Source of the DNA: Chiloscyllium plagiosum
Lineage: Eukaryota
Direction: 5' to 3'
DNA: 58,989 nucleotides
NCBI RefSeq assembly: GCF_004010195.1
Contig: NC_057752.1
Location: 11,976,012 to 12,035,000, forward strand
Both the position numbers and the translations under genes were made by a program. This document shows positions 1-46,440 of this stretch, in pieces. Below the pieces are notes generated by a model. It was not told the origin of the DNA and searched no databases. It saw nothing but the letters and a program-made list of their open reading frames with translations. Each line of letters opens with the position of its first letter. The stretch's first letter is position 1.

Positions 1-640
1 CAATCCCTGTATTGACTGCTGTTGGCATGCTTGAATTACATTAAGCAGCCTCCTAACGTTATTGGAGGATCTGCGACCCTTTATTAAGCCCGTCTGATCC
101 TCTTTAATAATAGAAGGTAACACAGCCTGAACGTGAGAGCCTTAGAGAGGATCTTAAAGTCCACATTTAAGAGCAAGATGGGCCTGTATGAAGCACAGCC
201 TTCCGGATCCTTCCCTTTTTTAAAGGATAAGCGAAATATTGGCCTCTCTCAGAGATAGTGGGAGACAATCATGACTGTATGAATCATTAAACATATTCAG
301 CATCGGGCCTGACAGTATACTTATAAATTCCTTATAGAATTCACTGGGAAGTCCATCAAGACCGTGCACCTTTCCATTCTGAAGCTGCCTCACAGCGTCC
401 TGCACTTCTTGCTCTGATAATGGGGCATTGAGAAAGAACTGTTGTTCGGGAGTCACACCCGGGAGCTTCAGATCTCTAAAAAAGGATTCCATTTTGGCCT
501 GCCCCTCCTCACAATTCTCAGACGGATATAATTTAGAGTAGAATCTCTGGAACGCCACATTAATCTTTTTAGAATCACATGTTAGGTTCCCAGACCCTTC
601 CCTAATCGCTGTAATGGTTTGTGGGGCAGTTCTCTTTCTG

Positions 641-740
641 AGATGGAAATGTGTTGCTGGAAAAGCGCAGCAGGTCAGGCAGCATCTAGGGAACAGGAGA
701 ATCGACGTTTCGGGCATTAGCCCTTCTTCAGGAATGAGGG
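641..740 (-). mobile_element. 100-bp PLE terminal-repeat insertion (family A) with hammerhead motif
   Basis: Perfect 13-bp TSD AGTTCTCTTTCTG at 628-640 and 741-753. Same sequence family as the repeat that ends the GIY-YIG element at 4333-5094. Confidence 0.88.
704..731 (-). ncRNA. Minimal type I hammerhead ribozyme motif (family A, intact core)
   Basis: CUGAAGA-A-GGGC-UAAU-GCCC-GAAA-CG-UC: both conserved boxes, a 4-bp helix II and a GUC cleavage triplet. Confidence 0.8.
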
Positions 741-2513
741 AGTTCTCTTTCTGGCAAGGTATGGTAAGTATTTGCCTGGCTTGTCACCATGCTCGTATAA
801 CCTTTGCTTTGCAAAAGCCAGCTCCTTCTTTGCCGTCTGCGTGAGCACGGAATTTAGTGCAGACCGCAGTGCCATAACCCTCTGTAGTTTGACCAACGAG
901 GGTCTGTCAAAATAGGCCTTCTCGGCTGCCTTCAACCGTTCTTCAAGGAGACGTTGCTGCTCACCCTTCTGCCGCTTCCTACTTGTGGAATATGAAATAA
1001 CTAACCCTCTGGCATAAGCTTTGGCAGTTTCCCAGAGAACAGATGAGCTATCAACCGAGTCTATGTTGATGTCTAGGAAAGCCCGAAATTCCCAAGAGAA
1101 ATACTCCACAAACGTACTGTCCATGAGAATAAAGGGGTCCATTCGCCAGTACCTTGAATCCACTGTAACATCCTTAATCTTAACCATGAGGTACACTGGA
1201 GCATGATCAGAGATGGCAATATTACCAATCGTACAGGATGCCACCAGATCCAGGGTTACCGCAGGGGTCAGAAATAAATCAATCCTCGTGTGACATCTAT
1301 GCTGATTGGAGAAAAACATGAAATCCCTACCTGTAGGGTGGAGACACCTTCAGACGTCCACCAATCCCAATTCCCCACACAAACCCAATAACTGTTTAGT
1401 TTGTGCAGAGGGTATCGAGGGACCTTTAGGCAACCTGTCTACTGTGGCGTCCATGAGGCAGTTAAAATCTCCCCCTATAATGATGTGCCGAGACTTGAGA
1501 CTTATCAGTTTAGAAAAAGCATCTACCAAGAATTTAAGAGGATGAGCTGGGGGACAACAAACATTTAAAATACCATATTCTTCCCTATTTATCAAGGCTT
1601 GAAGAATTACAAACCTCCCGTATGTGTCTTTAACATAGTCCAACAATTTAAATGAGACATTTTTCCTAACCAATATAGCCACTCCCCTACTTCTGGTATT
1701 AAATGATGAAAAATAAACTCGGTCAAAGCCATTCTGCTGTAATTTCAGATGCTCCTTGTCATCCAAATGTGTCTCCTGTAACAAAGCAATATCCACCTTC
1801 TCCTTTCTAAGGCTCAAGAGTACCTTCTTCCTCTTAATTGGTGAGTGACTTCCCTTGATATTCCAGGTACACCATTTAATCAAATCATTAGCCATAATCT
1901 TCTGCAATTACATTTAAATTCCAGAGAGGAGGAACCCGAACCACAAATTGCTGAGCCTTAGTGTCACATGGTCCACCAAATATAAAAACTACATAAACTA
2001 AAACCACTACATTTAACAATCATACAAAATTATTAAAAATAAAAAACAACAAAAACCAGAAAACAAACCAACATATAAAGTGCCAATAGCACTGAGTAGG
2101 GGAACTCACCCCCTGCCCGGAGGGGGCAACTACCCATCCCGAACTGCCCATAAATAGGCATCTAACCAGCTCAACCACCTTCACTTCTCCCAGCTAGAGC
2201 CGCATCACAAGCACAAAGTAAAAAGAATAAACACCCCATAGAATATCAATATGAATAAAATAAAAACATTCTTTCTTTTATGAATAAAAGGGGGAATATA
2301 TACCCCATCCATCCTTTGCTATGTCCTAACTTAGAAATTTAAAATGTACATCTTAACCACCGCCAGACATAGTTTGAACCAAATTATTATCAATGGACGA
2401 ATAAAAAAAAGGGGAAAAAAAACAAAGCTCCAACCAGATTTCCTCCATTTCTTTTACAGAATGATAAACGCATACCCAAGCAACGATATTTATACGTACT
2501 ACAATTGTTTAAA

Positions 2514-3315
2514 TTAGGTTAGTTTGTCCACAAAGTCTCTTGCCTTCTCCGATGTGTCAAAGAGATGCATGGATCTATCTAAGGTGATCCGAAGCACTGT
2601 CGGATATCTCAGGGAGTACTGAATCCCAAGCTCCTTCAGTCTTCTCTTAACACCATTGTACGATTTTCGTTTCTGGATCACCGCCGCTGAAAAGTCCTGA
2701 AAAAACATGATCTTAGACCCCTCGTAAATTAGGGCCTTTGGTTCCTTCCCCTGGAGTCTGGAAGCCTTCATGACTCTCTCCTTATCCCGGTAATGATGGA
2801 ACCGCACCAGGAAAGGACGAGGGCGTTGACCCAGACCCGACCTCCGTGCTGTGACCCGGTGAGCCCTATCTATCTTCAATCCTCTCATGTCAGTCTCCAA
2901 GTCAAGGAATTTCGGAAGCCAATCTTCAACAAATTCCGCAGGCCGCTTACCTTCCTTACCCTCGGGCAAACCGATGATCCGAATGCTTTTTCTCCTGCCC
3001 CTGTTTTCAAGATCATCCACTTGGTCACGCAAATTTCAGGGCTTGGATCTCTTCCTTGAATGAACTGGCATCAGCTTCCACCACTGTGATCCTGTACTCT
3101 ACCTCATCCGTCCTCTTCTCCAGGTCTCCCAGCTGCTGCTCATGCTTCTGCAGCATGAGAGAGACTGGAGCCAGCTTTTCTTCAATCTGTTTCCCCAGCA
3201 TCTCGCAAGATTTCGAGAGCTGGTTCACCAGGTCCTGGAAAGTAATCAGCTCTGAGGCTGCTGCAGGCTGAGCTGCAGGCCCGGCCTCGGATGCTCCTCC
3301 TCCCTTTTTAGGCAT
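2514..3315 (-). pseudogene. L1 ORF1 (coiled coil + RRM/CTD), one frameshift near 3030
   Basis: DDLENRGRRKSIRIIGLPEG, IDRAHRV, RPRPFLVRFHHY, IMFFQDFS and YSLRYP are typical L1 ORF1p motifs. Confidence 0.9.
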
Positions 3316-3828: not shown

Positions 3829-4332
3829 TGGGGATTTCAGTTAGGACAGTGAGGTTCTAGAACATGATTAATATTAGGTACGGGCATAAAGGTGCATAAA
3901 TCCCCAAGGCCTGATGAGATTTATCCCAGGTTGCTATGGGAGGCAAGGGAGGAGATTGCTGGAGATATTTAATACTTTGCTGGCCACAGGTGAAGTGCTG
4001 AATGACTGGAGGATAGCTAATGTGGTTCCTTCGTTCAAGAAGGGCAGCAGGGATAGGCCAGGTAATCACAGATCAGTTAGTCTGATGTCAGTGGGAGAGA
4101 AATTAGTGGAAAAAGATTCTGTCGGACAGGTTTAATTAATTTGAAAGGCAGGGATTGATCAGGGATAGTCAGCACACATTTGTTGAAGAGAGATCCTGGC
4201 TGACAAATGTAATCCAGTTTTTTGAAAAGGTGACTACATAGTGATGACAGTAGTGCAGTTGATGTGGTTTACATGGAATTCTGAAGGCCTTTGACAAGGT
4301 CCCACATTGAAGGCTGATCCAAAATTCTGGAT

Positions 4333-5094
4333 TAGAGTGGTGCTGGTAAAGCACAGCAGTTCAGGCAGCATCTGAGGAGCAGGAAAATCGACGTTTCGGG
4401 CAAAAGCCCTTCACCAGGAATAGAGGCAGAGTGCCTGAAGGGTGGAGAGATAAATGAGAGGAGGGTGGGGGTGGGGAGAAAGTAGCATAGAGTACAATAG
4501 GTGAATGGGGGTGGGGATGGAGGTGATAGGTCAGAGAGGAGGATGGAGTGGATAGGTGGGAAGGAAGATAGGCCGGTAGGACAGGTCATGGGGACAGTGC
4601 TGAGCTGGAAGTTTGGAACTGGTGCGAGGTAGGGGAAGGGGAAATGAGGAAACTGGTGAAGTCCACATTGATGCCCTGGGGTTGAAGTGTTCTGAGGTGA
4701 AAGATGAGGCATTCTTCCTCCAGGCGTCGGTGGTGAGGGAGCGGCGGTGGAGGCCCAGGACCTCCATGTCCTCGGCTGAGTGGGAGGGGGAGTTGAAATG
4801 TTGGGCCACAGGGCGGTGTCCCAGAGATATTCCCTAAAGCGCTCTGCGAGGAGGCGTCCAATCTCCCCAATGTAGAGGAGACCGCATTGGGAGCAACGGA
4901 TACAATAAATGATATTAGTGGATGTGCAGGTAAAACTTTGATGGATGTGGAAGACTCCTTTGGAGCCTTGGAAGGAGGTGAGGGAGGAGGTGTGGGCACA
5001 GGTTTTACAGTTCCTGCGGTGGCAGGGGAAGGTGCCAGGATGGGAGGGTAGGTTGTTGTGGGGGGACGTGGACCTGACCAGGTAGTCACGGAGA
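4333..5094 (-). mobile_element. Penelope-like element, 5'-truncated: GIY-YIG endonuclease end + terminal repeat
   Basis: Minus-strand frames give IIYCIRCSQCGLLYIGE, VAQHFNSPSH and LIFHLRTLQPQGIN. A hammerhead-like motif at 4390-4417 has a mutated CUGGUGA box. Confidence 0.92.
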
Positions 5095-5099
5095 ATTCA

Positions 5100-20044: not shown

Positions 20045-21310
20045 AAATGACTGAAAACAACAAATGCTGGTGATCATAGTGGGTCAGGCAGCATCCATGG
20101 GGAGACAGCAAACTAATGTTTCTAATCTAGATGACTCTTCATCAGAGCTGATGTGTGGAGGGGATAGCATTTATGCAATGGAGTGGGGGAGGGCAGTACT
20201 GGTGGAGAAAGGATGTTCATAGTTCAGATTAAGTGATCAGAATGGGAGAACAATGGTGTGTCTAAGTGCCAGACTGGGAAGGACAGACAGTCCCGCTGGA
20301 GTAGGGGAAGGGGAGAGAACTCATGGTGACAGACAATGTAACAAGTAAAGCTAAAAGAAATGGGTTCACAATGTGAAGGTATTGAACTCACCAAGTCCAG
20401 AAGGTTGTAAAGTGCCTAGTTTGAAGCGCTGTAGCATGCTGAGGACAGAGAAGCGTATATGCAAGCAGGACCCTGTGTTAAAACGATCTGTTACAGGAAG
20501 GTCAAGGTCACACTGCACACAGAGCATGAGATGTTCTGCAAAGTGTCACCCAATCTATGTTTGATTTCTCCAATGTACAGTCGGCCACATTGGGTGTAGC
20601 AAATATGATAGGGAGAAAGTGAGGACTGGAGATGTGTTGCTGGAAAAGCGCAGCAGGTCAGGCAGCATCCAGGGAACAGGAGAATCGACGTTTCGGGCAT
20701 AAGCCCTCCTGAAGAAGGGCTTATGCCCGAAACGTCGATTCTCCTGTTCCCTGGATGCTGCCTGACCTGCTGCGCTTTTCCAGCAACACATCTCCGGCTC
20801 TGATCTCCAGCATCTGCAGACCTCACTTTCTCCAGAAAGTGAGGACTGCAGATGCTGGAGATCAGAGTCGAGACTGTGGTGCTGGAAAAGCACAGCAGGT
20901 CAGGCAGCCTCCAAAGAGCAGGAGAATTGATGTTTCAGGCAGAAGCCCTTCATAAGGAGTGGTGAAGGGGTTCCTGACAAAGGGCTTCTGCCTGAAACTT
21001 GACTCTACTGCTCCTTGGATGCTGCCTGACTTGCTGTGCATTTCCAGTACCACACACTCGGCAGCAAATACAATTACACAAGATTGGATGAAATGCTGCT
21101 CCACCTGGAAAGACTGTTTCGGCCCTTGGATGGTGAGCAGGGAGGACGTGAAAGGGCAGGTATTGCACCTTCTGCGGTTACATGGGAAGGTGCCATGGGA
21201 AAGGATGGTGGTGTTGGTGGTCGAGGAATGGACTAGTGTATCCCAGAGGGAATGATCCCTGCGAAATATGGACAGGAGAGTGAGGGGGGAAGATGTGTTT
21301 AGTGCTGGCA
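20045..21310 (-). mobile_element. PLE (family B) GIY-YIG end + terminal repeat, hosting two nested family-A fold-backs (20611-21060)
   Basis: TFPCNRRRCNTCPF and CGRLYIGE motifs; degenerate hammerhead at ~20115-20150; nested TSDs. Confidence 0.85.
20709..20736 (+). ncRNA. Minimal hammerhead ribozyme motif (family A, intact core)
   Basis: CUGAAGA-A-GGGC-UUAU-GCCC-GAAA-CG-UC. Confidence 0.8.
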
Positions 21311-21859
21311 GAATGCCATGTATTTTTATGGCGAGTTCCGTTGAACTACTGGTTAATGGTAAGGTGCAGTTAATGGTAACCCCATGGAAATTGATAGTGG
21401 GAGATTCAATGTTGGTAACATCACTGATGATTAGATTGTGATGGTCATTGCCTGGCACTTGTATGACATGAATGCTGCTTGCTCACAAAAAAAAAGAGAC
21501 AAATATAAAAGGAGACTCTGAGGTTAATTTCTGTGACAGATTGTCCTAGAAATATGGGAATAAAGATACCTGTTAAGGGACAGGCATTCAAAACAAGGGA
21601 GAATCCCTTAAATACAGGACAGCCTGGGTCCCACTGATAGGCTGCCAAATTCCTTCCCACAAGTTTGAAGTTACACTTTGAGACTGAAAATGCTGGAACT
21701 TCATTGAGTGTGTTTCTTACAGTTCTTCATGACAGAAACATTGTTCAGCATTGATGTACATCCACATGACAATTAGTTCTTAGCTCTTATAAATACTTTC
21801 TTTTTAAAAAATCTCCATCCCAATATAACTGTTCCAATCATTAATTTTCTTTTCAATAG

Positions 21860-22330
21860 TAAGGACGATTAACGATTGAGCAATTGAACACCTTAAGAGT
21901 CTTTGGTAGTTTATTTTCTTTTCTCAGAAAAAACATTGTTCACAGTAACACTAGTGATCGGATGTTGTGCCTCTGTTATTTAGATTTGTCATTCAACGTT
22001 CTCAGTGTTGAGGTGAGTTGGCACACTGCACAGATGACATTGTGCCTGTTGCTCCTTGTGATGCTGGAGATCTGCTTGATGTTCCTAATGTTGTGCTCCT
22101 TAGTGTTGATGTTCCTTGCTGGTGAAGCTATTGATGTTATTTCACTGGTTAGTCATGTTGTTGCTGGTGAGGATGACCTTTACTGCTTTTCCAGTTCAGG
22201 TGTAAATCGAATATGAACTCTGTTCTTTCTCACTTGATTATCTGGTTCAGTGTCAATGTTGTATGAGCTTTTTATGAATAAATCCTGTATATGCACAGTT
22301 TGTCCTTTCAGCAACTCAGGCTGTATTTGA
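21860..22330 (-). mobile_element. Gypsy-like integrase C-terminal remnant
   Basis: The reverse translation QPELLKGQTVHIQD...SYNIDTEPDNQVRKNRVHIR resembles the LPELxxGxxVxIxD...SYxV...RRNRxHL tail of Gypsy integrases. Confidence 0.5.
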
Positions 22331-23619
22331 CATACGTGTTAACCTCAAGATGATGAACTGGGGGAAACAAAAACAAGGGATTCTTGGCTGGAGGAGCAGT
22401 GGGTGTTGCTGACAAGGCTGTAGGAGCAGGCAACACCCACCTCTGTTAGCAGAACATCCCCACTCCAAATATCCAGCTGTTAAAATCAGAGAACTCTATA
22501 GAGAGAAAAATTTTGGCCAGTGCTGCTGCTGTATCTCATGGCAGAGTGTCTGTGCATAGGCATTGTGCTGTCTCCAGACTGTGTATGTGCAAACGCTCTG
22601 AGCAGTTTCTTCATTCACTGTAGGAGATAAATGGATTTCAAAGAAGCCCATTCCCAGGAGATGGGACATCAATTTGAATTGGAGAGGTGTGTTCATTGCA
22701 GAGTTTTCAGTAGGTTACTAAGGATGTATAGGGGTCACTGGAGAGCAGTTCAAAAGGCAGGGACTGACAAGACAATGAATTGCAAAGAGAGAGAGATAGT
22801 AGATTCTGTTAGAAGTGTAGGTAACAATGGTTTACAACAATTTCCAATAGCAGTTGGATGCTCCTTCTGTCAGAACTCAGGCCAAGTTCTACGAGTTATT
22901 AGGCAGCTAGGTGTTGAAGTCAGGGCTCAGTAAAAGTTTTGGAAGTTGTGGTGGGCTACTAGTAAATTAGTGAAGTTAAGAGTGGGTTTGAAAAGCCCAT
23001 AAGCAATATTTACCTAATGCAGCTGTGCAAGAATTGAGCTCAGGGAAAAGCACAAGAAAAGATCTATGCTTGTAGGTGAAAAGCTGGTGGGCCATGTCGA
23101 GTCTTCACTGAGTCTTCATCCTCCTTGGTCCACAACTTCCAGAATGGTCTGTGGCCATTGGGCAATGGGGTCATGAGCTAGACCCCATCATCCAATGGGG
23201 TCGTGCCAATACTCCACTGTGGCCATGCCAGGGAGGTATAAAGTGCACACTCAGGCAGTCAAGATGCCAGAAAGTCTGATTGGCACTTCTCCAATACACA
23301 ACCTTCAGGCTGTTTGTAACTGGTTCCCCCAAACATCTTTGACCTTGGTTTTCACTGTTCTCTGTCACTGATAGGTGCTGGCTGCAGTTTAATTTGGTTT
23401 GGCCAATTTTCTGTCAGGACAAACCTGAGTTCTCTCGCTCTAGGTCAATTTAGAATCTCAAATTTTGGGTCTGTTGCCAGGTGACCACAGATTCTCCTGT
23501 TGATCCCTTGAAGTGTCAAGTGAAAATAAGATCAGAGGTTCAGACCATGCACTCATGCAGACATGCATCAAGTCTCAGACAGATAGCCTAACTCCCTGAG
23601 TTACTGCATTGCCCATCAT

Positions 23620-26600
23620 ACATAGATAATAATCCCCTATACACTAGCTATCTTCTTTATGCATAGTAATAAGCTTAACAGTATTTTATACAAATAACTT
23701 AATACATAAACTAAGAATTTAGCCACTATTTATATATACTGGCTCACCTTCAAGCCTCTTTGGCAATTAGCAGCATGTGGTAGAGTAAAATTCATAACGT
23801 GTAACAATTTACATCATTCTATCACAACACAGTCTGGGTTCATTCATTTCTTGGCTTCTGCTGCAGGAGCCTAGAGTCCATAGTTAGCTATTCCCATTCA
23901 CCAGACCTATTTCCATAGCCGTCTAAATTCATCACTTTAAAATGTATAGCCAGCTCTCTTTTGAAACCTCCATCACTCCCCCAAGCAGCGCATTCCAAAT
24001 CCTAACAATTCTGAGTAAAAAGGTTTTTCCTCACCTGACTCCTAGCTCTCTTGCTGACAGTCTTGAAATTGTGACCCCTAGTTAGACATGCTAAATTGTC
24101 GAAATAGAATATCCTTCTTTACCCTGTCAAAATTGTTCATAATTTAGAAAACATCATTAAAACTTCACCTCTTAATCTTCTTTGCTCCAAGGAGAATAAC
24201 CCTAATTTCTCTATTGCTTTCCTTGTATATAAAATTCTTCATTCCTGGTATTGTTCTGGTAAATCTCCTTTGAAACTTATCCAGGGCTTTAACATCCTTC
24301 CTTAAATAAGGTGCCCAGAACTGAACACAATACTCCAAATGTGGTCTGACCAATGATTTTTAGAGGTGTAACATCACTTCTGAAGAAAGGTCACTGGACC
24401 TCAAAACATTAATTCCAATTTCTCTCCACAAATGCTGCTTGACCTACTGAGGTTTTCCAGCAATTTCTGGTTTTGTTTTGGATTTCTAGCCTCCTCAGTT
24501 CTTTGGTTTTTCTGCAGCATCACTTCCTTGCTTTTATACTCTATGTCTCTATTTATAAACCCAAGGATCCTATAAGCATTAACAACTGTTTTGACTTGCC
24601 AGCCCACCTTCAGAGAATCATGCATGTGAACCCCTCCTGTACTCCCCTCAAAGTTATATCAATGAGTCTGTATTGTCTCTATGTCTTTCTTCTACCAAAA
24701 TGCATTACCTGACATTTCTCCCAGTAATCCCCAAAAGTTTGTTTGAGTTCATCACTGATATCGACAAAGCTCTCACTTCTCTTCTGGATGTCTGTGCTCA
24801 ATTAGGCCTACCTTGCCTGGTGTGTGTGGCCTCATACAAAAGGTGTTTTGGATGTTACATGTAAAGGTCCCATGCTAGTAGTTGTGCAATGTTCTCCCTT
24901 TCCCTTGTATGCAATCCTGGTGATGTCTATGTTCAGTGTCCGAATCTCTGCAATACAAATTAGAATGCTGTTTGTCCGAAAACCACACAAGGCATGTTTA
25001 TTTGAATATACAGAGTCGGGGGTACACAATTATTTCTTTTGTCTGCTAACATCTATTCAGAGTGGTACATACGAGGCTTCCCTCTTTCTCAACAGCATAC
25101 AGAAGGTCCTGTTTGAATTTGAACCATGCTCACACTCAGGTAATGCTGGCATTTTCCAACTCGAAGACTTGTAACCCATTTTGAGTTTGTGTTATGATCA
25201 GGATCCCCAGGACCAGGGCCACAGTCTTTCCTGGGGTTCCCTTAAAATCATTGTTAAACCAGACCTTAGTCAATTGCTGTAATTGACAATTTGAAGTCTC
25301 TCTTCCTGCAGAGCAAATACTCTATCTGCTCAGGACCTGTTCTTGCTTAGCTTGCTTGAGGTTTGCCCTCAACTGTTTGATCATCCATTGGCCATAGATG
25401 CCGCACAGGGACCTATTCTGCTCCTTACTGTCATCATCTCTTTTTCCTCGGATGATCTTGTTGATGGTCCTGGTGTGCTCTCTAGCACAGTTACTATGTT
25501 GGTTGTCTGTGATTTTCTTTTATTTGCCCTCGGCATCTTGCTGACTGTTCAGATTAATTTTATCCAAGGGCTGTTTAACTTGCTTGCTTAAAATTCTGAA
25601 CTTATTGTCCAAATTAGTCACATCAAGAGTATTGACTGTGGACACTCCTGCTCTGTAAGCTGTTGCCAAATCATTCAAAATCTTATACAAATCCCGCTGG
25701 CCTGGGTCTGGCCTCCCCCCTTGTCAATCTCTGTTTCCATCCTAATAGCCAATGAGTCAAATACAAGTATAATTTCTGAAGTTGGGAAGGGCACCATTCT
25801 GGAAGCTGGGTTCAGGATTTATCTAACCCCGCTGGTACCAATTCACGGTGTACATTGTCGTCCAGGGGTTTTGCCTGTGTGTTTTAAAATCACCCTATTT
25901 TGTGGTGCTCAGGTAGTCCTCGGACAAACACATGCACTTTCTGGCTGCTTTTAGCCCTTTTTAAATTTTGTATCGGACATAGTTCCCCCTTCGACCTTCC
26001 TGGGGCATTGTTGCCCAATTTTACAGCCCTTTCTCTGGACCGGTAGCCAAACATACCATTTCAGTACATCTGTTTGTGGAGAACGCTACCTGTCACCCAT
26101 GGTGTCTATACTCAGGTGGTAATACTTTGACTCTCGTTTGTCTTTCTATACATAACCCGTTGGTTGTTACAGCCAAACATCACGGATTGTTGGGATGGAC
26201 CTACAAAGCACCATCCCCACATTTGCCTGCCTCCAATGGGACAAACCACTGAGAGCCGGGATATGTGTACTCTTGCCCAATTATTGCTTCTGACAATCAC
26301 ATCCTGGTATCCAGCCAATGATTAGACCAACAGACTGTATGTCATCAACCTGAAGAGGGGATCAAAGTGGCATCTATTGTTATGCTAATGTAATATCTGA
26401 CCAAGTTTAGATATCTCCCCACCCTTCTCCATCTGTGGAGATATTTTTCTAACTCTGTTTGGTTCTGGTCTGCATTCAGCTAAACTCCGTCCAAAATTTA
26501 CTTTTATTGAATTCTCTCAATTCCCCTCTTGTCAGTCAATTATGTTTGTGTCAGGCCCTCACTTCAAACTGGCAGGGTGGAAGTGGGTTGGTGCGATGCA

Positions 26601-26800
26601 AGCGTCAGAGGTCCAGATGATTAAAACTTAGATGATGGGATGAAAAATGGTCAAAAGACAAAATAGCCTTTAATTTGAGTAAGATGAAGATGAGACGAGA
26701 AATGGCCAAAGCATGAAGGTGGCTCAAAGATGATAATGATAATGATGGCTAGCTATCATAACATATGGTGCTGTAACCCTGGACAACTAGTCTTGACTGG
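23620..26800 (-). pseudogene. env-like remnant (interrupted by a CR1 at 23880-24715)
   Basis: From 25696: RDLYKILNDLATAYRAGVSTVNTLDVTNLDNKFRILSKQVKQPLD (basic site, fusion-peptide/heptad-like), then LCGIYGQWMIKQLRANLKQ. A hydrophobic IVAKFLVYVLSYLYKILLSLLLCIKK segment lies near 23700. Confidence 0.5.
23880..24715 (-). mobile_element. CR1 3' fragment containing a PLE family-B mini-insertion (24380-24512)
   Basis: RPHLEYCVQFWAP. The insertion starts at CTGAAGA and is flanked by TG(T/C)A(A/G)CATCACTTC at 24367-24380 and 24513-24526. Confidence 0.85.
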
Positions 26801-26879
26801 AAAATTTGGGTTTTTGACAATATTCCTCTATGACCATAATGGATTAGCTTGGCATCAGGGTTGCGGTGTAATAAGGGTA

Positions 26880-27100
26880 GGTGGATGTGTGTCTGCATTT
26901 CTGTGGGTGGGTGTATGTGCATGTGGGCGGATGTAATGGTGAGTGGGTGTGTGAGAGTGGTTGGGTCTGTGTCTGTATTTGTGGGACTGGGTAGATGTGT
27001 GTGCATGTGTGTGGGTGGGTATGTCAGCAGCTGTGTGAATAAGTGTGTGATTGGTATGTATGTTGGTGTGTGGGTATGTGAGTAGGTGGGTTTGTGTGTG
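26880..27100. repeat. Degenerate (GT)n/GTGG low-complexity tract
   Basis: TG-rich sequence; the overlapping Thr/His-rich ORFs are artefacts. Confidence 0.85.
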
Positions 27101-27629
27101 GGCAAGAATCAAGCCTCCTGCCTGGGTGGCAGGGCTCTAGATACCAGGGACTTGCTCCTCCAACAAGCCTTGGTTGGAATATTGGAATGACTGTGTTAGT
27201 AAAGGGGCTGTATCTGTCTCTGGGCCAGAGCGCCACACTGGACGCTTTCTTGGGCAGACTGTCTCTAACCATCCCTTTCACTTCAGGGCTGCTGCATGCT
27301 GAGGTCATGCCTTTGTTGGCTGGAAGTGGTGGGGCTAGCTGTGGTTCAGTTCCTGAGTGGCGAGGCCTCAGAAGTGACAGTGTCCATAGCTAGTCCAGGA
27401 TCCTGGCCTGGATCCGTAAGGCTTGTCCTTGATCAGGACTTGGATTAGGATCCACTTGCCCCAGTTCCAATAGAAGTCCACGAACGTGCTATACATTTAC
27501 AAGAGAGAGGCAACACACGTATGGCCACCCTCCTGTCCTGAATCGAGTGGCACTATGCACCGACTGGAGTTGGTTATCCAAGGCCAATCAGTGATCTGTG
27601 GCACTAGGATATTGTTAAATTTAAGTAGT

Positions 27630-27806
27630 ATTCTGACTTAGAGGCATTCAGTCATAATCCCACAAATGGTAGCTTCGCACTATTGGCTCCTCAGCCAAGC
27701 ACATATACCAAATGTTTGAACCTGCAGTTCCTGTCATACTGAGCAGGATTACTATTGCAACAACGTATCATCAGGGTAAAACTAACCTGTCTCATGATGG
27801 TTTAAC
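27630..27806 (-). pseudogene. 28S rRNA fragment (3' domain including the sarcin-ricin loop), non-functional
   Basis: The reverse strand contains GAGACAGGTTAGTTTTACCCT, AGTATGACAGGAAC (canonical AGTACGAGAGGAAC) and GGGATTATGACTGAATGCCTCTAAGTCAGAAT, with several CpG-type transitions. Confidence 0.92.
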
Positions 27807-27809
27807 TTT

Positions 27810-28548
27810 GTAATTCTTTCTCATTCTTGGTATATCTATTCTCCAGCTTGTTCTTCCATTTCCTCCCAGTCTATCTTTTTATCACCATCCCCATCTGATT
27901 CTGTTGTCCCAAATGCGCACATCATTCCCATTTGCATGGAAGGTTGCCACTTTTTCAATCTCGTGCTGGAGTGTTCAAAGCACGGGCTCTATTTTCTTTG
28001 CCTGCTCTGTAGGTTTCTGCATTTCTCAGTGAGCTCATCCATAGCTTTTTTGGGCTGTACCCTGATCACTGACCGTGTGTTGCGCCTTCTGGTGTACTCC
28101 ATCACACTGGGTCTGAAACTGTTCCAAGTGTACTGCCCACCTGGTTCTTCTGCTCTGCTGCTTTGACTCTTAATTTCTCCACTTTCTGCTATATTTCTTC
28201 CACTCCCTGACTTAGCTTCACCACCTCCCGTTCTCTGTCTCTCAGCTGCTCCACACAGCTGGTTATTACTATCCTGATGAAGCGCTTTTGCCCGAAACAT
28301 CAATTTTCCTGCTCCTCGGATGCTGCCTGACTTGCTGTGCTTTTCTAGCACCACACTCTCGACCTTTATCACGATAGTTTGTTAAGTTTTAAAGCACTCT
28401 TACTTTCAGCTTTCCATGCCACCTTCCTGCATTTCTGTCCCACAGGTCCCAGACCTAATATTTGCTCACTGCAATGGTTGACTCACTTGGGCCACTTCTT
28501 ATTTAGGTATTTCCTTAGTATCTCTTCCCACTCTGGGCACTGTGCCAT
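27810..28548 (-). pseudogene. gag-like N-terminal remnant, interrupted by a PLE mini-insertion (28273-28365)
   Basis: MAQCPEWEEILRKYLNKKWPK*, then ITSCVEQLRDRER and coiled-coil-like segments. It lies downstream of the LTR-like repeat. The assignment is by resemblance only. Confidence 0.45.
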
Positions 28549-29478
28549 TCCTCGTATTAGTTCCTTTTAATTTACTGCTCTCTTTGTTGTGGGTCCCTTA
28601 ACTTATATTTGCTACTTTTTTTCACTTCTCTGTGACTCTGAGTTCCTGACATTTTCACTATTTCTTACCTAGTGGGTCTCTGACCCTACTTTAGCTTCTC
28701 TGTATCCGCGTAGGTCCTCTGACTCTGTATTCAGCTTCCTTGACGCAGATTTCCTTGAGTCCCCAACCCTATAATAGTCTATGGCTGTTTGTCGTCCTCA
28801 CATTACAAGCATTTGGTTTACGGCCCAATCACTGGTTGGAAGCCTCCATCCTCTTTTACCCACTTGAATCCTGTCACATGGGGTAGCTGCCCTTTTAAAT
28901 CAGGCTCAGGCTGGAGGTCGGAGAGTTCAAGGTTAGTGGGGTTTGACATTGGAAGTTATACAAATAATTCTAATTGAAGAGCACACAGGAACATGTTGTC
29001 TGTGCTTTGGACATATCGACCAGTTTATGTCAAAACATATTATCCAAGTGCTCATCAGTGAAACAGATAAAGGGATACAGAATTCGATTTGTGGTTCAAC
29101 TCAATTTTAATAATGAAATATTCTTTATTGAAAACACCATGTGTGCATTTCCCAAATTCTCACAATATTTACTCTGTATCTAGCTCTATCTGTCTGAGAA
29201 ATCATGTTACCTGCAACAATCTACATATTTGAGCTGGGCCATTGGAACCTCCTCCCTCTCTGACATACAGCTGGCTGTCTTTCATAAAGTGGGTCAGGAC
29301 AGATCTTGTCTCTCTCGCTGGTCAGAACTCCGCTGCTGGACCAGGTTCCTCCTCCTTAGCCTGCACCTTCCAGAATGTTCTGCGGCCGTTGGCCAATGGG
29401 ATCATGAGCTAGGTTCAAAGTATCCAATGGGGTCACGCCAATACTCCACTGTGGCCATGAAGAGGTGTAAAGTGCATA

Positions 29479-29651
29479 GCAGAAAGTGAGGACTGCAGAT
29501 GCTGGAGACCAGAGCTGAAAATGTGTTGCTGGAAAAGCACAGCAGGTCAGGCAGCATCCAAGGAGCAGGAGAATTGACATTTCGGGCATAAGCTGAAGAA
29601 GGGCTTATGCCCGAAACGTCGATTCTTCGGTACCTTGGATGCTGCCTGACC
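29479..29651. mobile_element. PLE family A fold-back mini-element
   Basis: Perfect 13-bp TSD TGTAAAGTGCATA (29466-29478, 29652-29664); intact hammerhead core at 29593-29620 (+). Confidence 0.88.
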
Positions 29652-29919
29652 TGTAAAGTGCATACTCAAGTAGTCAAAATGCCAGAACGTCTGATCAACA
29701 CTTCTCCAATACACAACCCTCGGGCTGGTTGGAACTGGTTCCCCCAAACCTTTCTGACCTCTTTGACCTTGATTTCCGCTGTTCTCTGTAGTCAATAGCT
29801 GCTGACTACTGTTTAATTCAATTTGGCCAATTTTCTGTCAGGCCTGAGTTCTCCAGCTGTGTGTCAATTTAGAATCTCCAATTTTAGATCGGTAGTCATC
29901 TGACTAGTGACCTTCCAGA

Positions 29920-30170
29920 TATAGCAGGAGCTTGTGAATTGTCAAAAGTTGCTTGTGTCACCTGCTGCAACCCAGAAGAGTCTTAGGCTGCAAACAAAGG
30001 TCCACACAGAACTGCTGACAGTCTCAGCAAGTCCCATTACTACCCTTACTAACAGGAGATGACAAAGCACTGTGACAGACTCCTTGAAGAAATGATACTG
30101 CTCCTCACTGAGGTCCAAGAAGGAAGTAATGCTTGAACAGCCTGTTCTCTTGCATAATGCTTCCCTCATC
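29920..30170 (-). mobile_element. PIF/Harbinger transposase remnant
   Basis: SFLDLSEEQ...FKESVTVLCHLL...VAAGDTSNF resembles the HARBI1-like N-terminal region. Confidence 0.6.
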
Positions 30171-30177
30171 CACTAAT

Positions 30178-31430
30178 TCATAGAGTCATAGAGGTGTACA
30201 GCATGGAAACAGACCCTTCGGTCCAACCCGTCCATGCCGACCAGATATCCCAACCCAATTTAGTCCCACCTGCCAGCACCCGGCCCATATCCTTCCAAAC
30301 CTCATATACCCATCCAAATGCCTCTTAAATGTTGCAAATGTACCAGCCTCCACCACATCCTCAGGCAGCTCTTTCCGATAGGAAGACCAGAATTGCACGC
30401 AATATTCCAACAGTGGCCTAACCAATGTCCTGTACAGCTGCAACATGACCTCCCAACTCCTGTACTCAATACTCTGACCAATAAAGGAAAGCATACCAAA
30501 TGCCGCCTTCACAATCCTATCTACCTGCGACTCCACTTTCAAGGAGCTATGAACCTGCACTCCAAGGTCTCTTTGTTCAGCAACACTCCCTAGGACCTTC
30601 CCATTAAGTGTATAAGTCNNNNNNNNNNNNNNNNNNNNNNNNNNNNNNNNNNNNNNNNNNNNNNNNNNNNNNNNNNNNNNNNNNNNNNNNNNNNNNNNNN
30701 NNNNNNNNNNNNNNNNNNNNNNNNNNNNNNNNNNNNNNNNNNNNNNNNNNNNNNNNNNNNNNNNNNNNNNNNNNNNNNNNNNNNNNNNNNNNNNNNNNNN
30801 NNNNNNNNNNNNNNNNNNNNNNNNNNNNNNNNNNNNNNNNNNNNNNNNNNNNNNNNNNNNNNNNNNNNNNNNNNNNNNNNNNNNNNNNNNNNNNNNNNNN
30901 NNNNNNNNNNNNNNNNNNNNNNNNNNNNNNNNNNNNNNNNNNNNNNNNNNNNNNNNNNNNNNNNNNNNNNNNNNNNNNNNNNNNNNNNNNNNNNNNNNNN
31001 NNNNNNNNNNNNNNNNNNNNNNNNNNNNNNNNNNNNNNNNNNNNNNNNNNNNNNNNNNNNNNNNNNNNNNNNNNNNNNNNNNNNNNNNNNNNNNNNNNNN
31101 NNNNNNNNNNNNNNNNNNNNNNNNNNNNNNNNNNNNNNNNNNNNNNNNNNNNNNNNNNNNNNNNNNNNNNNNNNNNNNNNNNNNNNNNNNNNNNNNCTCC
31201 TCTGTAATCTGGACATTTTGCAAGATGTCACCATCTATTTCCCTACAGTCTATATCTTCCATATCCTTTTCCACAGTAAATACTGATGCAAAATATTCAT
31301 TTAGTATCTCCCCCATTTTCTGTGACTCCACACAAAGGCCGCCTTGCTGATCTTTGAGGGGCCCTATTCTCTCCTTCGTTACCCTTTTGTCCTTAATATA
31401 TTTGTAAAAACCCTTTGGATTCTCCTTAAT
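30178..31430 (-). mobile_element. Young CR1 spanning an assembly gap (N 30619-31196)
   Basis: IKENPKGFYKYIKDKR and RPLLEYCVQFW lie on either side of the gap. Confidence 0.9.
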
Positions 31431-33780: not shown

Positions 33781-34319
33781 TGGAAGAATAAATTGTTTAG
33801 GAAGCCAGTATGAAGCTTAATGATTAAAATTTAGTAAAATGAAGGATAAAGTGGCTTAAGGATTAACATTTATTATTATTAACAACATAGGTGTTTTAGT
33901 TAAAAGCAGTAACCAGTACAAAAACAAACAACTTTTTGGTCATAATCCATGAATCTTAGCAAGTACTGGCCTTTTGGCCAGAATTCCTGGGAAAGAACAG
34001 ACAGCCTCCGTGACCTGAACTAGCTGTGAACAGTACGAGCTATAAAACTGCAGTTTTCATTCATTCCCTACCAGTTTGGCTCATTATCGTAACTCGGTTT
34101 GCTACTAAAATGAAGAAGTCACGTAAAGACTATCCATGATTACGTTATAAAAATACTATTTTGAATAACTTGGAGATGCTACGTATATATGTACAGAATC
34201 TCTACCCTTGCATGCAAGAATAAAAACAAAAGACTGGCTTTAGACAAAGATATCATTTGTTGGAGTCTTGTTTCAGGTCAGTAAAACTTCGACACCCCCT
34301 GGCATCATCATAAAAGATT

Positions 34320-35390
34320 GACAAGCAGAGAATGGACTGGAGTTCTTACAGGAAGCAGGGTGTGAGGACGTATAGTCCAGGTAACTGTGGGAATCAGCGA
34401 GTTTGTAATAGATATCAATGGCTAGCATATTTCCCAGAAATGGAAACAGATGTCGAGGAAGGGAGGAGTCAGAGATGGACCGGGTTAAGATGAAAGCTGG
34501 GTGGAAACTGGAAGCAAAATTGATAATTTTTTCCAGTTCAAAGATATAAAAGAGACCTACAGGGCAACTTTTTCCACACAGAGGGTGGTACATGTATGGA
34601 ATGAGCTGCCAGGGGAAGTGGTGGAGGCTGGTACAATTACAACATTTAAGAGGCATTTGGATAGGTATATTAATAGGAGGGGTTTGGAGGGATATGGGCC
34701 AGGTGCTGGCTGGTGGAACAGATTGTGTTGGGATATCTGGTCGGTGTGGACGGGTTGGACCAAAGGGTCTGTTTCCATGCTGTACATCTCTATGACTCTG
34801 AGATGAGGGGGGAATCCTCACTGCTGAGGTCATCAACATACTGGAGAAAAGAGCTGTGGGTGGGGTCAGAGTAGGACTGGAACAGGAATGTTCCACATAT
34901 CCCACAAAGAGACAGGCATAACTGGGGCACATGCGAGTAGCCACGGCCAACCCTTTAACCTGAAGAAAGTGAGAGGAATTAAAGAAGTTGTTCAAACTGG
35001 GGACAAACGTGACGAGGCGGAGGAGGGTGGGGACAGTTCAAGCCTTCTTTCCAGGAAGAAACAGACAGCTCTAAGACCATTTTGATGGGGGATGGATATG
35101 TCGAGGGTTTGTAAATCCATGGTAAAGAGGAGATGGCTAGAGCCTGCAAATTGGAAATTTTGAAACTGAGTGTCAGAAGGGACTAGACAAAGGTAGGAAG
35201 AAATAAAGTTCCTTGGGGTAGGAACAGGCAGAAACAATAGACTGCCCAGGCAGACCTATCTCAAAGTCTACAAACAGAAAGGAGAGTGGGTTGTAAGGGG
35301 TTGGTGAACTATGAGCTTGGGGGCTGGTTGGTGGAGGATTGAGATTCCCCAGGTCAGTGTACGGTTGTTTGATGATGGCCCTGTAACATG
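34320..35390 (-). mobile_element. PLE reverse-transcriptase remnant, interrupted by a CR1 3' end (+, ~34540-34800)
   Basis: FLQVKGLAVATRMCPSYACLFVGYVE and DIYYKLADSHSYLDYTSSHP are PLE RT motifs. Confidence 0.85.
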
Positions 35391-35981: not shown

Positions 35982-36520
35982 TCAGATGCCTTGCAGAATG
36001 GCCATGCCTGAATGTGTCAAGAGCTCTCCATCCCATAGCGCAAAGGCTGGAACTAGTGGCATCTTGAAATCAGCTGTTATTGTGCTAACAACCGCCGCTT
36101 TCTCAACATCTATTAAACTAAGCTCCTTGTCGTCACAGTCCAGAAGAAAGCCCACTCGATCAGGCTTTCCAAAGAAGTCAACCGGTACCATCTCACTGGA
36201 AGACATGGAGTACCACTTCCTCTGGAGATAGGCATAAACCCAGGAGCAATCATTGGCACCAATACATTCTTCTCGTGACATGTTTGCCTCTGCCACCCCA
36301 ATTCGGAACTCTTGAGATCGTTTCACTGTTACTTCCCAGTAATGTCTCCCAGTTGAAAGAGTCACATCAGCCAAGACCACAGCCCACTCTCTGAAGCGCT
36401 CAGGGTTTTTTGGCACTTTACTTGGGTCAATGCCAATCATACGGTAGATAACTCCAGTCTCTTTTTTGAAAAGGTCTAAGCAACTGTGAGCGGTCTTCTC
36501 ATCCAATTTGAAATTTAAGT
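35982..36520 (-). CDS. SPRYD4: SPRY domain-containing protein 4, coding exon 2
   Basis: Polypyrimidine tract + tag acceptor at 36521, phase 1. FKLDEKTAHS, ERFREWAVVLAD, GRHYWEVTVKRSQ and PAFALWDGELLTHSG match SPRYD4. Confidence 0.96.
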
Positions 36521-37839
36521 CTATAAATGAAAAAAGAAATGCTACACACTGCTCCCCAAAGTACATTGCTTGAGACACATTCCCAGTTAGCCAGTGGTAA
36601 GCAATTCCTTTTAAGCACACAGATTTGTTACCAAATGTCTTCTCAGCTTCAATTATGAACATTTGAGGCTCAGTGTGGGATGGGTGAGATAGAGACTGCA
36701 GGTTGAGGGATAGTCAGATGGTTACGCTGGGAGTGGGAATCAGAAGAAGTGGCCTAAGGTGAGGAATGAAATGATAGGTGTATAGGGGTGAGCAAGAAGA
36801 CTGTTAGGGTGTTGAGAAGATGGGTCACAGAGTGAGGAGTTGTGAACAGGCTCAGGGAAGGAGAAAAAGGTCAGAATCAAAGGATTTTAGCTTGGTGGAT
36901 GTGAAACAGAGATACAAAGCTTCAGGTGAGGAGGGACGAAAAGGAGAATGGGCTCGACATGTGTCCAGCATTTCTCTCAGAGCTGCAGCAGTGTGGCGAT
37001 TGAAATTCAATCTAGGGGGTAGGGTAGCAAAGAGGAAAACGAGGGGATCTTGTTGTGGATAGATAGTGAGAGATTGTTTCCATTAAAATCCTGTCAGGTG
37101 GATGGAGAAGTTTCCATGGCCATTACTTAGAGAGCAAGGAACAATGTCCTGTTCATTATTGCTCAATTGGCATCAATAAAACAAACTTCAATTAATGTCA
37201 ACTGTTAATTTATCTACAAATGCTGTTCGACAAGTGTTTTCTATTCCTATTTTCCCCCCCAAAAAAATGAGCTTGCTGTTGTTATGGGATCTTGTTGTAT
37301 ACCCATTTCTAACATTACAATGGTGACATTTCAAAGAGTGCAAGATGTACATAAAGAACAGGAACTCAGCTGATCAGGGAGACAATTTTAGTGAGAATAC
37401 TGAGGTCTGGCACTACTGCAGCAGCCACTTCTTAGCTGGAACCAGGTGGAAGGCCAGAGCCAATCTGCAGCCCTGCACAAAGGGCAGAATCTTCCAAGGG
37501 TGAATTAAAACTGACTCCCCACTCCACTAGTGACGCCCAGTCACATGCCCATGCAATCTTGCCAGAGCCATTTGCCTCCAGAAGTGCATTAACACATCCT
37601 ACTGGACCAAGGAATTAGTCCACAGTTGTTCAGCTGGCAGTCCCAGTGGGAGAGGCAGGTGCCATTGCAGCAGACAGGAAGAAGCGAGGGTATCTTTAGA
37701 TAGCGATACAGATGTTGAAAAAAAAGTTTAAAATGATTTATGGTGGGGGATTTGCTGCATTGACAGGCCAGTTTGCTGTTGCAGCTGTAGTTCTGCAACA
37801 GAAGTGGTAACAGATTGGGGCGTAAATAAAATCAGAAGC

Positions 37840-45090: not shown

Positions 45091-45091
45091 T

Positions 45092-46440
45092 GCCTGAGTG
45101 AGTGTGCCTGAGTGCATGTGTCTGAGTGCCTGTGCCTGAGTGCGTGTGTCTGAGTGCGTGTGTCTGAGTGAGTGTGTCTGAGTGAGTGTGCCTGAGTGAG
45201 TGTGCCTGAGTGCGTGTGTGTATTTGTGTACAAGTGCCTGAGTGCGTGTGCCTGAGTGCGTGTGCCTGAGTGAGTGTGTCTGAGTGCGTGTGTCTGAGTG
45301 AGTGTGTCTGAGTGAGTGTGCCTGAGTGAGTGTGCCTGAGTGCGTGTGTGTATTTGTGTGCAAGTGCCTGAGTGCGTGTGCCTGAGTGCGTGTGCCTGAG
45401 TGAGTGTGTCTGAGTGTGTGTGCCTGAGTGCGTGTGTGTATTTGTGTGCAAGTGCCTGAGTGCGTGTGTCTGAGTGCCTGTGTCTGAGTGCGTGTGTCTG
45501 AGTGAGTGTGCCTGAGTGCGTGTGTCTGAGTGAGTGTGTGTATTTGTGTGCAAGTGCCTGAGTGCGTGTGCCTGAGTGAGTGTGCCTGAGTGAGTGTGCC
45601 TGAGTGCGTGTGTCTGAGTGAGTGTGCCTGAGTGCGTGTGCCTGAGTGCGTTGCCTGAGTGCGTGTGCCTGAGTGCGTGTGCCTGAGTGAGTGTGCCTGA
45701 GTGAGTGTATCTGAGTGAGTGTGCCTGAATGAGTGTGCCTGAGTGCGTGTGCCTGAGTGAGTGTGCCTGAGTGCGAGTGCCTGAGTGCGTGTGTCTGAGT
45801 GAGTGTGCCTGAGTGAGTGTATCTGAGTGAGTGTGCCTGAGTGAGTGTGCCTGAGTGCGTGTGCCTGAGTGAGTGTGCCTGAGTGCGTGTGTCTGAGTGA
45901 GTGTGCCTGAGTNNNNNNNNNNNNNNNNNNNNNNNNNNNNNNNNNNNNNNNNNNNNNNNNNNNNNNNNNNNNNNNNNNNNNNNNNNNNNNNNNNNNNNNN
46001 NNNNNNNNNNNNNNNNNNNNNNNNNNNNNNNNNNNNNNNNNNNNNNNNNNNNNNNNNNNNNNNNNNNNNNNNNNNNNNNNNNNNNNNNNNNNNNNNNNNN
46101 NNNNNNNNNNNNNNNNNNNNNNNNNNNNNNNNNNNNNNNNNNNNNNNNNNNNNNNNNNNNNNNNNNNNNNNNNNNNNNNNNNNNNNNNNNNNNNNNNNNN
46201 NNNNNNNNNNNNNNNNNNNNNNAGTGTATCTGGTGAGTGTGCCTGAGTGAGTGTGCCTGAGTGCGTGTGCCTGAGTGAGTGTGCCTGAGTGCGTGTGTCT
46301 GAGTGAGTGTGCCTGAGTGAGTGTGCCTGAGTGCGTGTGTCTGAGTGTGTGTGCCTGAATGCGTGTGTGTAATTGTGTGCAAGTGCCTGAGTGCGTGTGT
46401 CTGAGTGCATGTATGTGTGTGTGCGTGCGAGTGTCTGAGT
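45092..46440. repeat. 14-bp minisatellite YCTGAGTGMGTGTG with interspersed 18-bp spacers; gap N 45913-46222
   Basis: Directly visible tandem array. Confidence 0.97.

Follow-up and report, generated by a model that had tools for sequence, protein, structure and literature searches.

A decayed shark provirus with an envelope remnant, no pol and an internal piece of 28S rRNA in the sense of the element

The DNA analysed here, a stretch of 58,989 nucleotides from Chiloscyllium plagiosum (hereafter the window), contains an old, dead provirus that is flanked by LTRs, lacks pol, bears an env remnant and includes a piece of 28S rRNA in its own sense. The repeat pair, the identity of env, the sense 28S piece and the lack of pol can be read directly from the locus. 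The parts of the provirus itself lie on the minus strand, and their order and strand match those of one provirus (LTR, leader, gag-like region, env, purine tract, LTR); we infer that a single integration event produced both sides of the element.

The upper LTR-like repeat (29346..29908, minus strand), a U3-like part interrupted by a SINE, pairs only with the lower repeat (23115..23489, minus strand), which starts with TG and is apparently truncated before R-U5. This was the sole pairing within the window, no third copy being present in the 59 kb. The initial annotation had placed the upper repeat at 29908-29345, which its pairing with the lower copy confirmed as 29346-29908, and a second repeat at 23489-23110, of which 23115-23489 pairs and R-U5 is apparently lacking. 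The two are alike as had been estimated, at 82% identity (297 of 362 aligned columns) rather than the 75-80% over some 380 bp first given, with a K2P distance of about 0.21 (0.207 and 0.210 in the two halves) and with differences in 56 of the 344 columns outside CpG. Past 29346 and 23115 no sequence common to both repeats was found (best local score 22-25, against 21-30 in controls). The stretch 29028..29345 on the minus strand, which the lower copy lacks, is probably the R-U5 of the upper LTR and contains a polyadenylation signal at 29129. A candidate CA end at 29028 and TGG at 29022, a candidate primer site, were also seen by eye; no tRNA gene occurs in the window. On the lower side, an AT-rich spacer that is purine-rich at its end (23490..23879, minus strand) did not match the C-terminal regions of the four env relatives compared with it; at 23510-23490 it includes a weak polypurine-tract candidate, by eye. 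No target-site duplication (TSD) of the whole element was found, in agreement with the initial annotation: the best exact word has 4 bp, a length reached by 75% of random pairs, and the lower LTR end is missing.

Four later insertions, for two of which no TSD was found, have entered the element. The younger insertion within the upper repeat (29477..29653), which we take to be a SINE, is 89-91% identical to its best other copies in the window and retains a 13-bp TSD, a length that no random pair reached in the control. A SINE piece within the gag-like region (28272..28363), at most 88% identical to other window copies, has no TSD that could be found, nor has the 3' piece of a LINE (23880..24720, minus strand, lower end by eye), presumably CR1-like, which matches many other window repeats at 69-85%. 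Repeat comparison within the window places a further SINE (24373..24511) inside this LINE piece, which interrupts env at about 24710 and coincides with the loss of its C-terminus.

Downstream of the upper LTR, the leader (28549..29027, minus strand) is defined by position alone and matched no Pfam family in three frames. It is followed by a gag-like N-terminal remnant (27807..28548, minus strand), with an ATG at 28548 and a coiled-coil-like reading broken by stops and frame changes, which we take to resemble the Gag of shark LTR elements. We infer from these features and from its position that it is gag; the gag-like remnant had been annotated at 28548-27810, and neither Pfam nor a word-based homologue search (none of 230 candidates) gave a match to it. 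On the other side of the 28S piece lies a block of 54% G+C (27105..27477, minus strand) with no other copy in the window, no Pfam family and no Atlas match (0.76), whose stop-free run of 120 codons was equalled in 122 of 2000 shuffles; it could be more gag, accessory or pol-end sequence, or a scrap of LINE. The claim that the 28S piece stands where gag breaks off is unproven: gag might continue in the roughly 370 nt after it, and pol would then have been lost elsewhere. A degenerate CA-rich tract (26870..27104, minus strand) follows, recognized by eye and under the Tandem Repeats Finder threshold; this is the DNA earlier described as GT-rich, which reads as CA-rich on the strand of the element.

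A scan of the 59 kb window with 4227 Rfam families gave a single match, LSU (RF02543), on the minus strand at 27764-27611 (121 bits, E 1.8e-28), which a second run extended up to about 27806. The conserved 28S core, in the sense of the element, therefore spans 27611..27806 (model positions about 2961-3161) and includes what we take to be the sarcin-ricin loop. A continuation through the next variable segment (27478..27610, minus strand) is probable: the base helix of this segment closes near 27485 in the model alignment, and 27612-27478 is predicted to fold as two long hairpins (z -2.4; 6 of 200 shuffles were as good). The 28S likeness thus probably spans about 330 nt, from 27806 to about 27478, the latter end being set partly by what we presume of vertebrate 28S. 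Of the fragment first annotated at 27806-27630, the sense and the 27806 end stand, and the likeness runs beyond 27630 in the Rfam match as well as in the probable continuation. The conserved final 100 nt or so of 28S are absent from the piece, and directly after it there is neither an A-rich nor a simple-repeat tail. At both candidate ends the best TSD word has 4 bp, as reached by 92-93% of random pairs, in a test of exact words in which an old TSD could have decayed past recognition. A SNORD29 match (E 3.2) was dismissed as chance. Three 28S patterns matched 14 times in viral, genome and metagenome contigs, where one of the 14 was true 28S, non-vertebrate-like and 74% identical over 129 nt, and not at all in plasmids and phages; three short motifs were absent from four of the five SINE28 supplement files.

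No pol was detected. Read in 12 frames, the gag, post-28S and env regions gave no Pfam family below E 0.2, and the leader and LINE piece gave none in six further readings; only about 0.7-1.6 kb separates the 28S piece from env, which leaves no room for pol. The earlier statement that pol and RT or IN motifs are lacking holds in these readings. A match near 26620 to a pol-end-like part of the env relative P0023 was rejected as a pol remnant (32 of 500 shuffles did as well), and may be the env N-terminus.

The env remnant proper (24706..25877, minus strand) is identified by homology and comprises the end of the surface subunit, the fusion-peptide region, a heptad repeat and a Cys-rich part, with stops and at least two frame changes; no membrane anchor was found in it. 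Upstream, a probable 5' part in the surface subunit (25878..26760, minus strand, start uncertain) showed sub-threshold local matches to relatives; a hydrophobic stretch lies near 26760-26650. The suggestion of an env-like remnant was confirmed, with 16 relatives at E<=0.001 (best 1.3e-26) and an hhalign probability of 99.7 (E 6e-27); 33 of 34 env relatives match the window, all at 25877-24706 and spread over three frames. The env family occurs in at least five shark genera. Relatives show a basic cleavage site together with long helices and, at the C-terminus, a hydrophobic one; the closest are short fragments of 40-55% identity. A word-based homologue search with the env read-through found none among 2904 candidates, no Pfam family, PF00523 included, matched the env readings of the window, a PDB sequence search with the env profile gave four rows, all coiled-coil only and at E>=0.1, and no DNA of env relatives was found in metagenome or viral contigs. 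For the window's own env Atlas offered no reading, and for the relative P0012 it gave Baculo_F (0.94), Baculo_F/Gypsy (0.94) and Fusion_gly (0.93). AlphaFold models of two relatives were poor (pLDDT 46, and 42 for P0019); with P0019, the only one used in the fold search, the top 10 Foldseek PDB rows were all RSV or hMPV F (E 0.02-0.06), the top three in BFVD were a torovirus spike, a nidovirus spike and paramyxovirus F, and foamy Env ranked 15th (E 0.34). Judged on these relatives, the env family looks weakly F-type, that is paramyxo/pneumovirus-like, which does not single out Loki, and a foamy-like or another lineage is possible.

The decay of the 28S piece can be set against that of the repeats. 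A count by eye found changes at 8 of the 87 strongly conserved model columns and decay of all three fully conserved CpGs; outside CpG about 5 of 81 have changed (95% interval 2-14%), where each LTR would be expected to show about 8% (binomial p 0.55). The piece thus appears to be about as decayed as the repeats, in a comparison of little power, and its point estimate of 6%, below the 8% per LTR, would allow a later insertion. Absolute dating was rejected for want of a usable rate: at the shark rate of 2.2e-10 per site per year assumed in PMC4422223, a K2P of 0.21 would correspond to about 480 My, which is too old, so that either the true rate exceeds this value or each repeat derives from an insertion of its own.

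How the 28S piece came to lie inside the provirus is best explained, tentatively and as the likeliest single origin, by capture before integration. On this reading the provirus would belong to an LTR-element family of sharks whose envelope is F-type, and its RNA would have been reverse-transcribed by the enzyme of a helper. The reverse transcriptase would have switched from the viral template to co-packaged 28S rRNA, copied about 330 nt of it and returned into gag, a non-homologous template switch of the kind named 'patch repair', and the remaining gag and pol would probably have been lost in the same or a neighbouring jump, so that capture would be coupled with pol loss. The product would then have integrated, with the 28S piece as a passenger without function, and later have decayed, received two SINEs and the LINE piece, and lost its lower LTR end. 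Several observations favour capture: the 28S piece lies in the orientation of the element, as capture requires and as a later insertion would produce half the time; it has no TSD or tail, while the younger SINE in the upper repeat retains its 13-bp TSD; its 3' terminus is missing; its decay matches that of the element; and such template switching has been described with 7SL and other host RNAs (PMC4997597), as has the capture of host mRNA in reptile ERVs (PMC4299795). Capture is weakened by the LINE piece in the same env, which also lacks a TSD and demonstrates that later insertion with deletion occurs here, by the block at 27105-27477, whose lack of identity means that the 28S piece may not mark the pol deletion, and by the passages of reviews on virion-enriched RNAs (PMC4997597 among them), which name Pol III RNAs and 5S and do not include 28S. 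Template switching, as proposed in the initial annotation, therefore stands as the likeliest single origin and is not separated from a later insertion.

Such a later insertion, by which a non-LTR enzyme (CR1, L1 or R2 read-through) copied 28S into the gag of an existing provirus, is almost as likely. It might have involved a 28S/LINE chimera, with the block of about 370 nt and the CA-rich tract as the LINE part, and pol would have been lost simultaneously or separately, by deletion or through a spliced RNA. The element did take four other later insertions, half of them without a TSD, the non-CpG divergence of the 28S piece may be below that of the LTRs, 109 LSU fragments lie scattered in the human genome, and 28S/LINE-1 chimeras are known in mammals (10.1101/2025.02.02.635956). 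Against this, the piece has no tail, TSD or 28S 3' end, the block after it matches no repeat in the window, its CpG decay is complete in the conserved columns, and no R2 sequence adjoins it. The R2 site, presumably, lies upstream of the piece by several hundred nt. The ends as seen, an internal 28S piece with neither tail nor TSD, are what would be predicted if a break in the provirus had been filled with rDNA, which is abundant, or with rRNA-derived cDNA while the viral sequence between the ends was deleted; this is nevertheless improbable, as the sense orientation would then be chance, the event must be about as old as the provirus, and repair fills are usually shorter than this piece. We give equally little credence to an origin of the repeats from two related elements or a recombinant, with the 28S piece merely near the seam and the gag and env sides never part of one pol-less genome. 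The 18% divergence of the LTRs is high, a TSD and the lower R-U5 are lacking, and the age at the published rate (PMC4422223) is implausible; yet the order and strand of the parts are those of one provirus, both repeat halves are equally diverged, the 59 kb hold no third copy, and env relatives that are fragments of 40-55% identity are to be expected of an old subfamily.

The term non-autonomous ERV, applied in the initial annotation, presupposes replication of the pol-less form, which nothing at the locus shows. That this form was itself a mobile, helper-dependent family is unlikely; such a family would derive from a so far undescribed lineage of shark retroviruses with F-type envelopes, and would have kept the highly structured 28S segment, with its presumed sarcin-ricin loop, through replication, perhaps as an aid to packaging, dimerisation or ribosome binding. 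Should it be so, the family would stand beside SINE28 as its equivalent among LTR elements and would preserve, as a dated fossil, the capture of rRNA by a retroviral reverse transcriptase, and several loci with common junctions would make it a new sort of rRNA-bearing mobile element. If capture is true, the germ line has here preserved a natural instance of a retroviral reverse transcriptase switching to large-subunit rRNA, which the literature passages on packaging and capture do not name as a template; if the piece instead arrived later and only once, the locus amounts to a common decayed provirus that has gained a further passenger.

Our literature searches found no report of a provirus containing an rRNA piece. 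Of the elements described so far, lokiretroviruses (Wang and Han 2021, PMC7947760) are likewise LTR-flanked and have an Env related to paramyxo/pneumovirus F, a relationship that appears weakly here, on relatives. They are defined by an RT that is sister to that of Retroviridae, together with a tether plus RNase H and a CGIN1-like integrase, whereas our element has no RT; their Gag has an N-terminal coiled coil, seen here by eye only. They were reported in none of six cartilaginous-fish genomes in the supplement rows, and it is in this class of fish that the present env family, F-type in looks, sits. Pol-less derivatives exist there too, in the gag-only BHIKHARI of zebrafish (10.1101/2024.03.25.586437), and the passages on both describe no rRNA piece such as the one found here. 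SINE28 (PMC4994717) and the 28S/LINE-1 chimeras (18 loci, median 269 nt, 83% sense to LINE) also place outside the rDNA array a piece of similar size that derives from the 3' part of 28S; SINE28 usually has tails (25 of 29 copies) and TSDs (24 of 29), both lacking in our piece, and in the chimeras LINE follows 28S, whereas none was identified downstream of it among window repeats and Pfam. The Cassandra and Ajax TRIMs (PMC10886601, PMC10946416) are non-autonomous LTR elements that likewise carry rRNA-derived sequence, in their case a 5S Pol III promoter in both LTRs; no such promoter was found in our LTRs among the 4227 Rfam families, the sole match being the internal LSU piece, of no apparent function. 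Retroviral capture of host RNA is already known, from 7SL and other host RNAs, patch repair included, in the passages of PMC4997597, and from the KIT-ligand and nectin3 mRNAs of CrocERV29 and CrocERV31 (PMC4299795). The latter are shown by 9 and 6 copies and our element by one locus, and the cargo there is mRNA or 7SL and here rRNA; in all of them, a host RNA lies in sense inside a provirus that has lost viral genes.

Both the element on the minus strand between ~23115 and 29908 and its 28S passenger are real; the element is of the env-bearing LTR type, old and dead. The paired LTR-like direct repeats proposed in the initial annotation were upheld, each repeat having the other as its sole partner in a BLAST search of 22000-31000 against the window. 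The upper (29346-29908) and lower (23115-23489) repeats, compared as two halves flanking a SINE (29477-29653), were identical in 297 of 362 columns, with a K2P divergence of 0.207 and 0.210 for the two halves; outside CpG, 56/344 columns differed. A 13-bp duplication at the edges of the SINE indicates that it is later than the upper repeat. The likeness ends at 29346/23115, with no resumption within 6 kb (scores of 22 and 25 vs 21-30 in controls). Because a polyA signal (29129) and, by eye, a candidate CA end (29028) lie beyond 29346, where the common sequence ends, the upper LTR is probably ~690 nt long without the SINE and the lower LTR has probably lost its R-U5, which would explain the absent TSD of the element.

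The absence of pol also held, since the element has no room for it and none of its 18 frame readings, which covered the leader, the gag, post-28S and env regions and the LINE piece, contained a pol domain. The gag call fared less well: the frame that opens with the ATG at 28548 has a coiled-coil-like character and the look of Gag of shark LTR elements, but its identity was backed by neither Pfam nor homologue search, both of which gave no match. Directly 3' of this reading, at ~27806, starts the 28S piece, confirmed as the sole Rfam match in the window and as lying in the element's sense; it probably runs to ~27478, ~100 nt before the 28S end. Of the suggestion that gag breaks off at this piece, the strongest argument of the initial annotation, the adjacency stood and the end of gag was not established, because the following 370 nt (27105-27477) match no known family in Pfam or Atlas.

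The env-like remnant was corroborated by its relatives. Queried with the frame 26419-24730 (X at its 23 stops), 1.84 billion representatives yielded 16 relatives, four with E below 1e-10, and a profile built from 14 of them retrieved 24 proteins; 33 of 34 relatives align with the window, solely within 25877-24706. The match stops at the start of a LINE piece (23880-24720), past which the C-terminal parts of four relatives found no match. All relatives with names (8 of 10 looked up, 22 of 24) are from sharks, and the env family is thus widespread in this group. The named proteins, annotated as uncharacterised, belong to Scyliorhinus, Mustelus, Chiloscyllium, Heterodontus or Pristiophorus.

No Pfam family exceeded the threshold in the env relatives. 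Three weak lines, all from relatives, are leads towards an F-type fusion protein: Atlas features (Baculo_F 0.94, Baculo_F/Gypsy 0.94 and Fusion_gly 0.93 clusters); a Foldseek search of PDB, in which the best 10 rows were RSV or hMPV F (E 0.02-0.06) and foamy Env ranked 15; and a search of BFVD, which returned torovirus and nidovirus spikes and paramyxovirus F. They are ranked as leads because the folded model is poor (pLDDT 42). Residues 1-95 of the relative P0023, which precede env in its gene model, look like the C-terminal end of an integrase, suggesting that pol-bearing relatives exist. The element's env would be Loki-like, whereas lokiretroviruses themselves are defined by RT and the element has no pol. 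The shark family looks F-type although lokiretroviruses are scored absent in 6/6 cartilaginous fish screened, according to the supplement of PMC7947760; a shark lokiretrovirus was not reported among the top-ranked literature matches, older subscription papers being outside this scope.

The window is repeat-rich animal DNA. On its minus strand lie a PRY/SPRY open frame of 243 codons (35982-36713; PRY E 2.6e-7, SPRY E 1.1e-15), probably a host exon, and an L1-like element (220-3035) extending past the window start, with an endonuclease (E 2.6e-15) and an ORF1-like frame whose Transposase_22 match (E 0.013) is below the cut-off. A 14-bp tandem array (45091-46412; 57.6 and ~10-13 copies) flanks an N gap (45913-46222), and a 182-bp tandem duplication (55158-55520, 96% identical) falls within a LINE piece. 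Another N gap (30619-31196) interrupts a LINE copy 700 nt past the upper repeat; the element itself is free of them. Frames at 4332-5096, 20491-21482 and 34273-35037, presumably pieces of Penelope-type (GIY-YIG) retroelements, adjoin SINE copies.

Three organisms, each represented by runs from two studies, contained sampled words of 24700-29950 at shares of 0.47-0.93, 0.35-0.36 and 0.25-0.27; the highest shares may come from the source sample itself. If they reflect divergence between orthologues, these shares would correspond to ~3% and 4%, which would make the element about five times as old as the splits among those organisms. An absolute date was dropped, the rate assumed in PMC4422223 giving an implausible 480 My for the repeats.

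By eye on the model alignment, 8/87 strongly conserved columns of the 28S piece differ, including three decayed CpGs and one difference adjoining a 3-nt gap. Its non-CpG differences (~5/81, 2-14%) vs the 8% expected at the element's age (p 0.55) are compatible with that age and equally with a somewhat younger one. Exact duplications were sought at seven pairs of insertion edges: the SINE nested in the LINE piece (24373-24511) has one of 7 bp, reached by 4% of random pairs, the SINE in the upper repeat has the 13 bp given above, and the remaining five pairs, among them the 28S piece with either of its candidate ends, gave 4 bp, the chance level.

We tentatively favour capture during reverse transcription, in which template switching onto co-packaged host RNA would have placed the 28S piece in the provirus. 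Such switching is established and extends to patches that a third template supplies at a non-homologous junction (PMC4997597). Capture predicts a sense, internal, tail-less, TSD-less and provirus-aged piece, which is what is seen. A later retrocopy by a non-LTR element is a nearly as likely origin: it can give the same ends, the LINE piece at the point of env loss also lacks a TSD, and 28S/LINE chimeras of similar size are described in 10.1101/2025.02.02.635956. A DNA-repair patch, predicted to leave the same ends as capture by template switching, appears improbable. Single integration is inferred from the sequence rather than demonstrated, because the end of the lower LTR is lost; two insertions are likewise a poor prospect, and that the hybrid formed a replicating family is rather doubtful.

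No 28S piece inside a provirus was reported among the top-ranked literature matches, a scope with older subscription papers outside it. A 28S-like sequence may be present in the Harvey sarcoma virus/VL30 leader, which the literature search did not support and which, if right, lowers the novelty. The 28S piece differs from SINE28 (PMC4994717) in lacking a tail and a TSD, and the element differs from Cassandra/Ajax (PMC10886601, PMC10946416) in having no 5S-derived promoter in its LTRs. By analogy, its way of working would resemble that of a defective retrovirus that captures host RNA.
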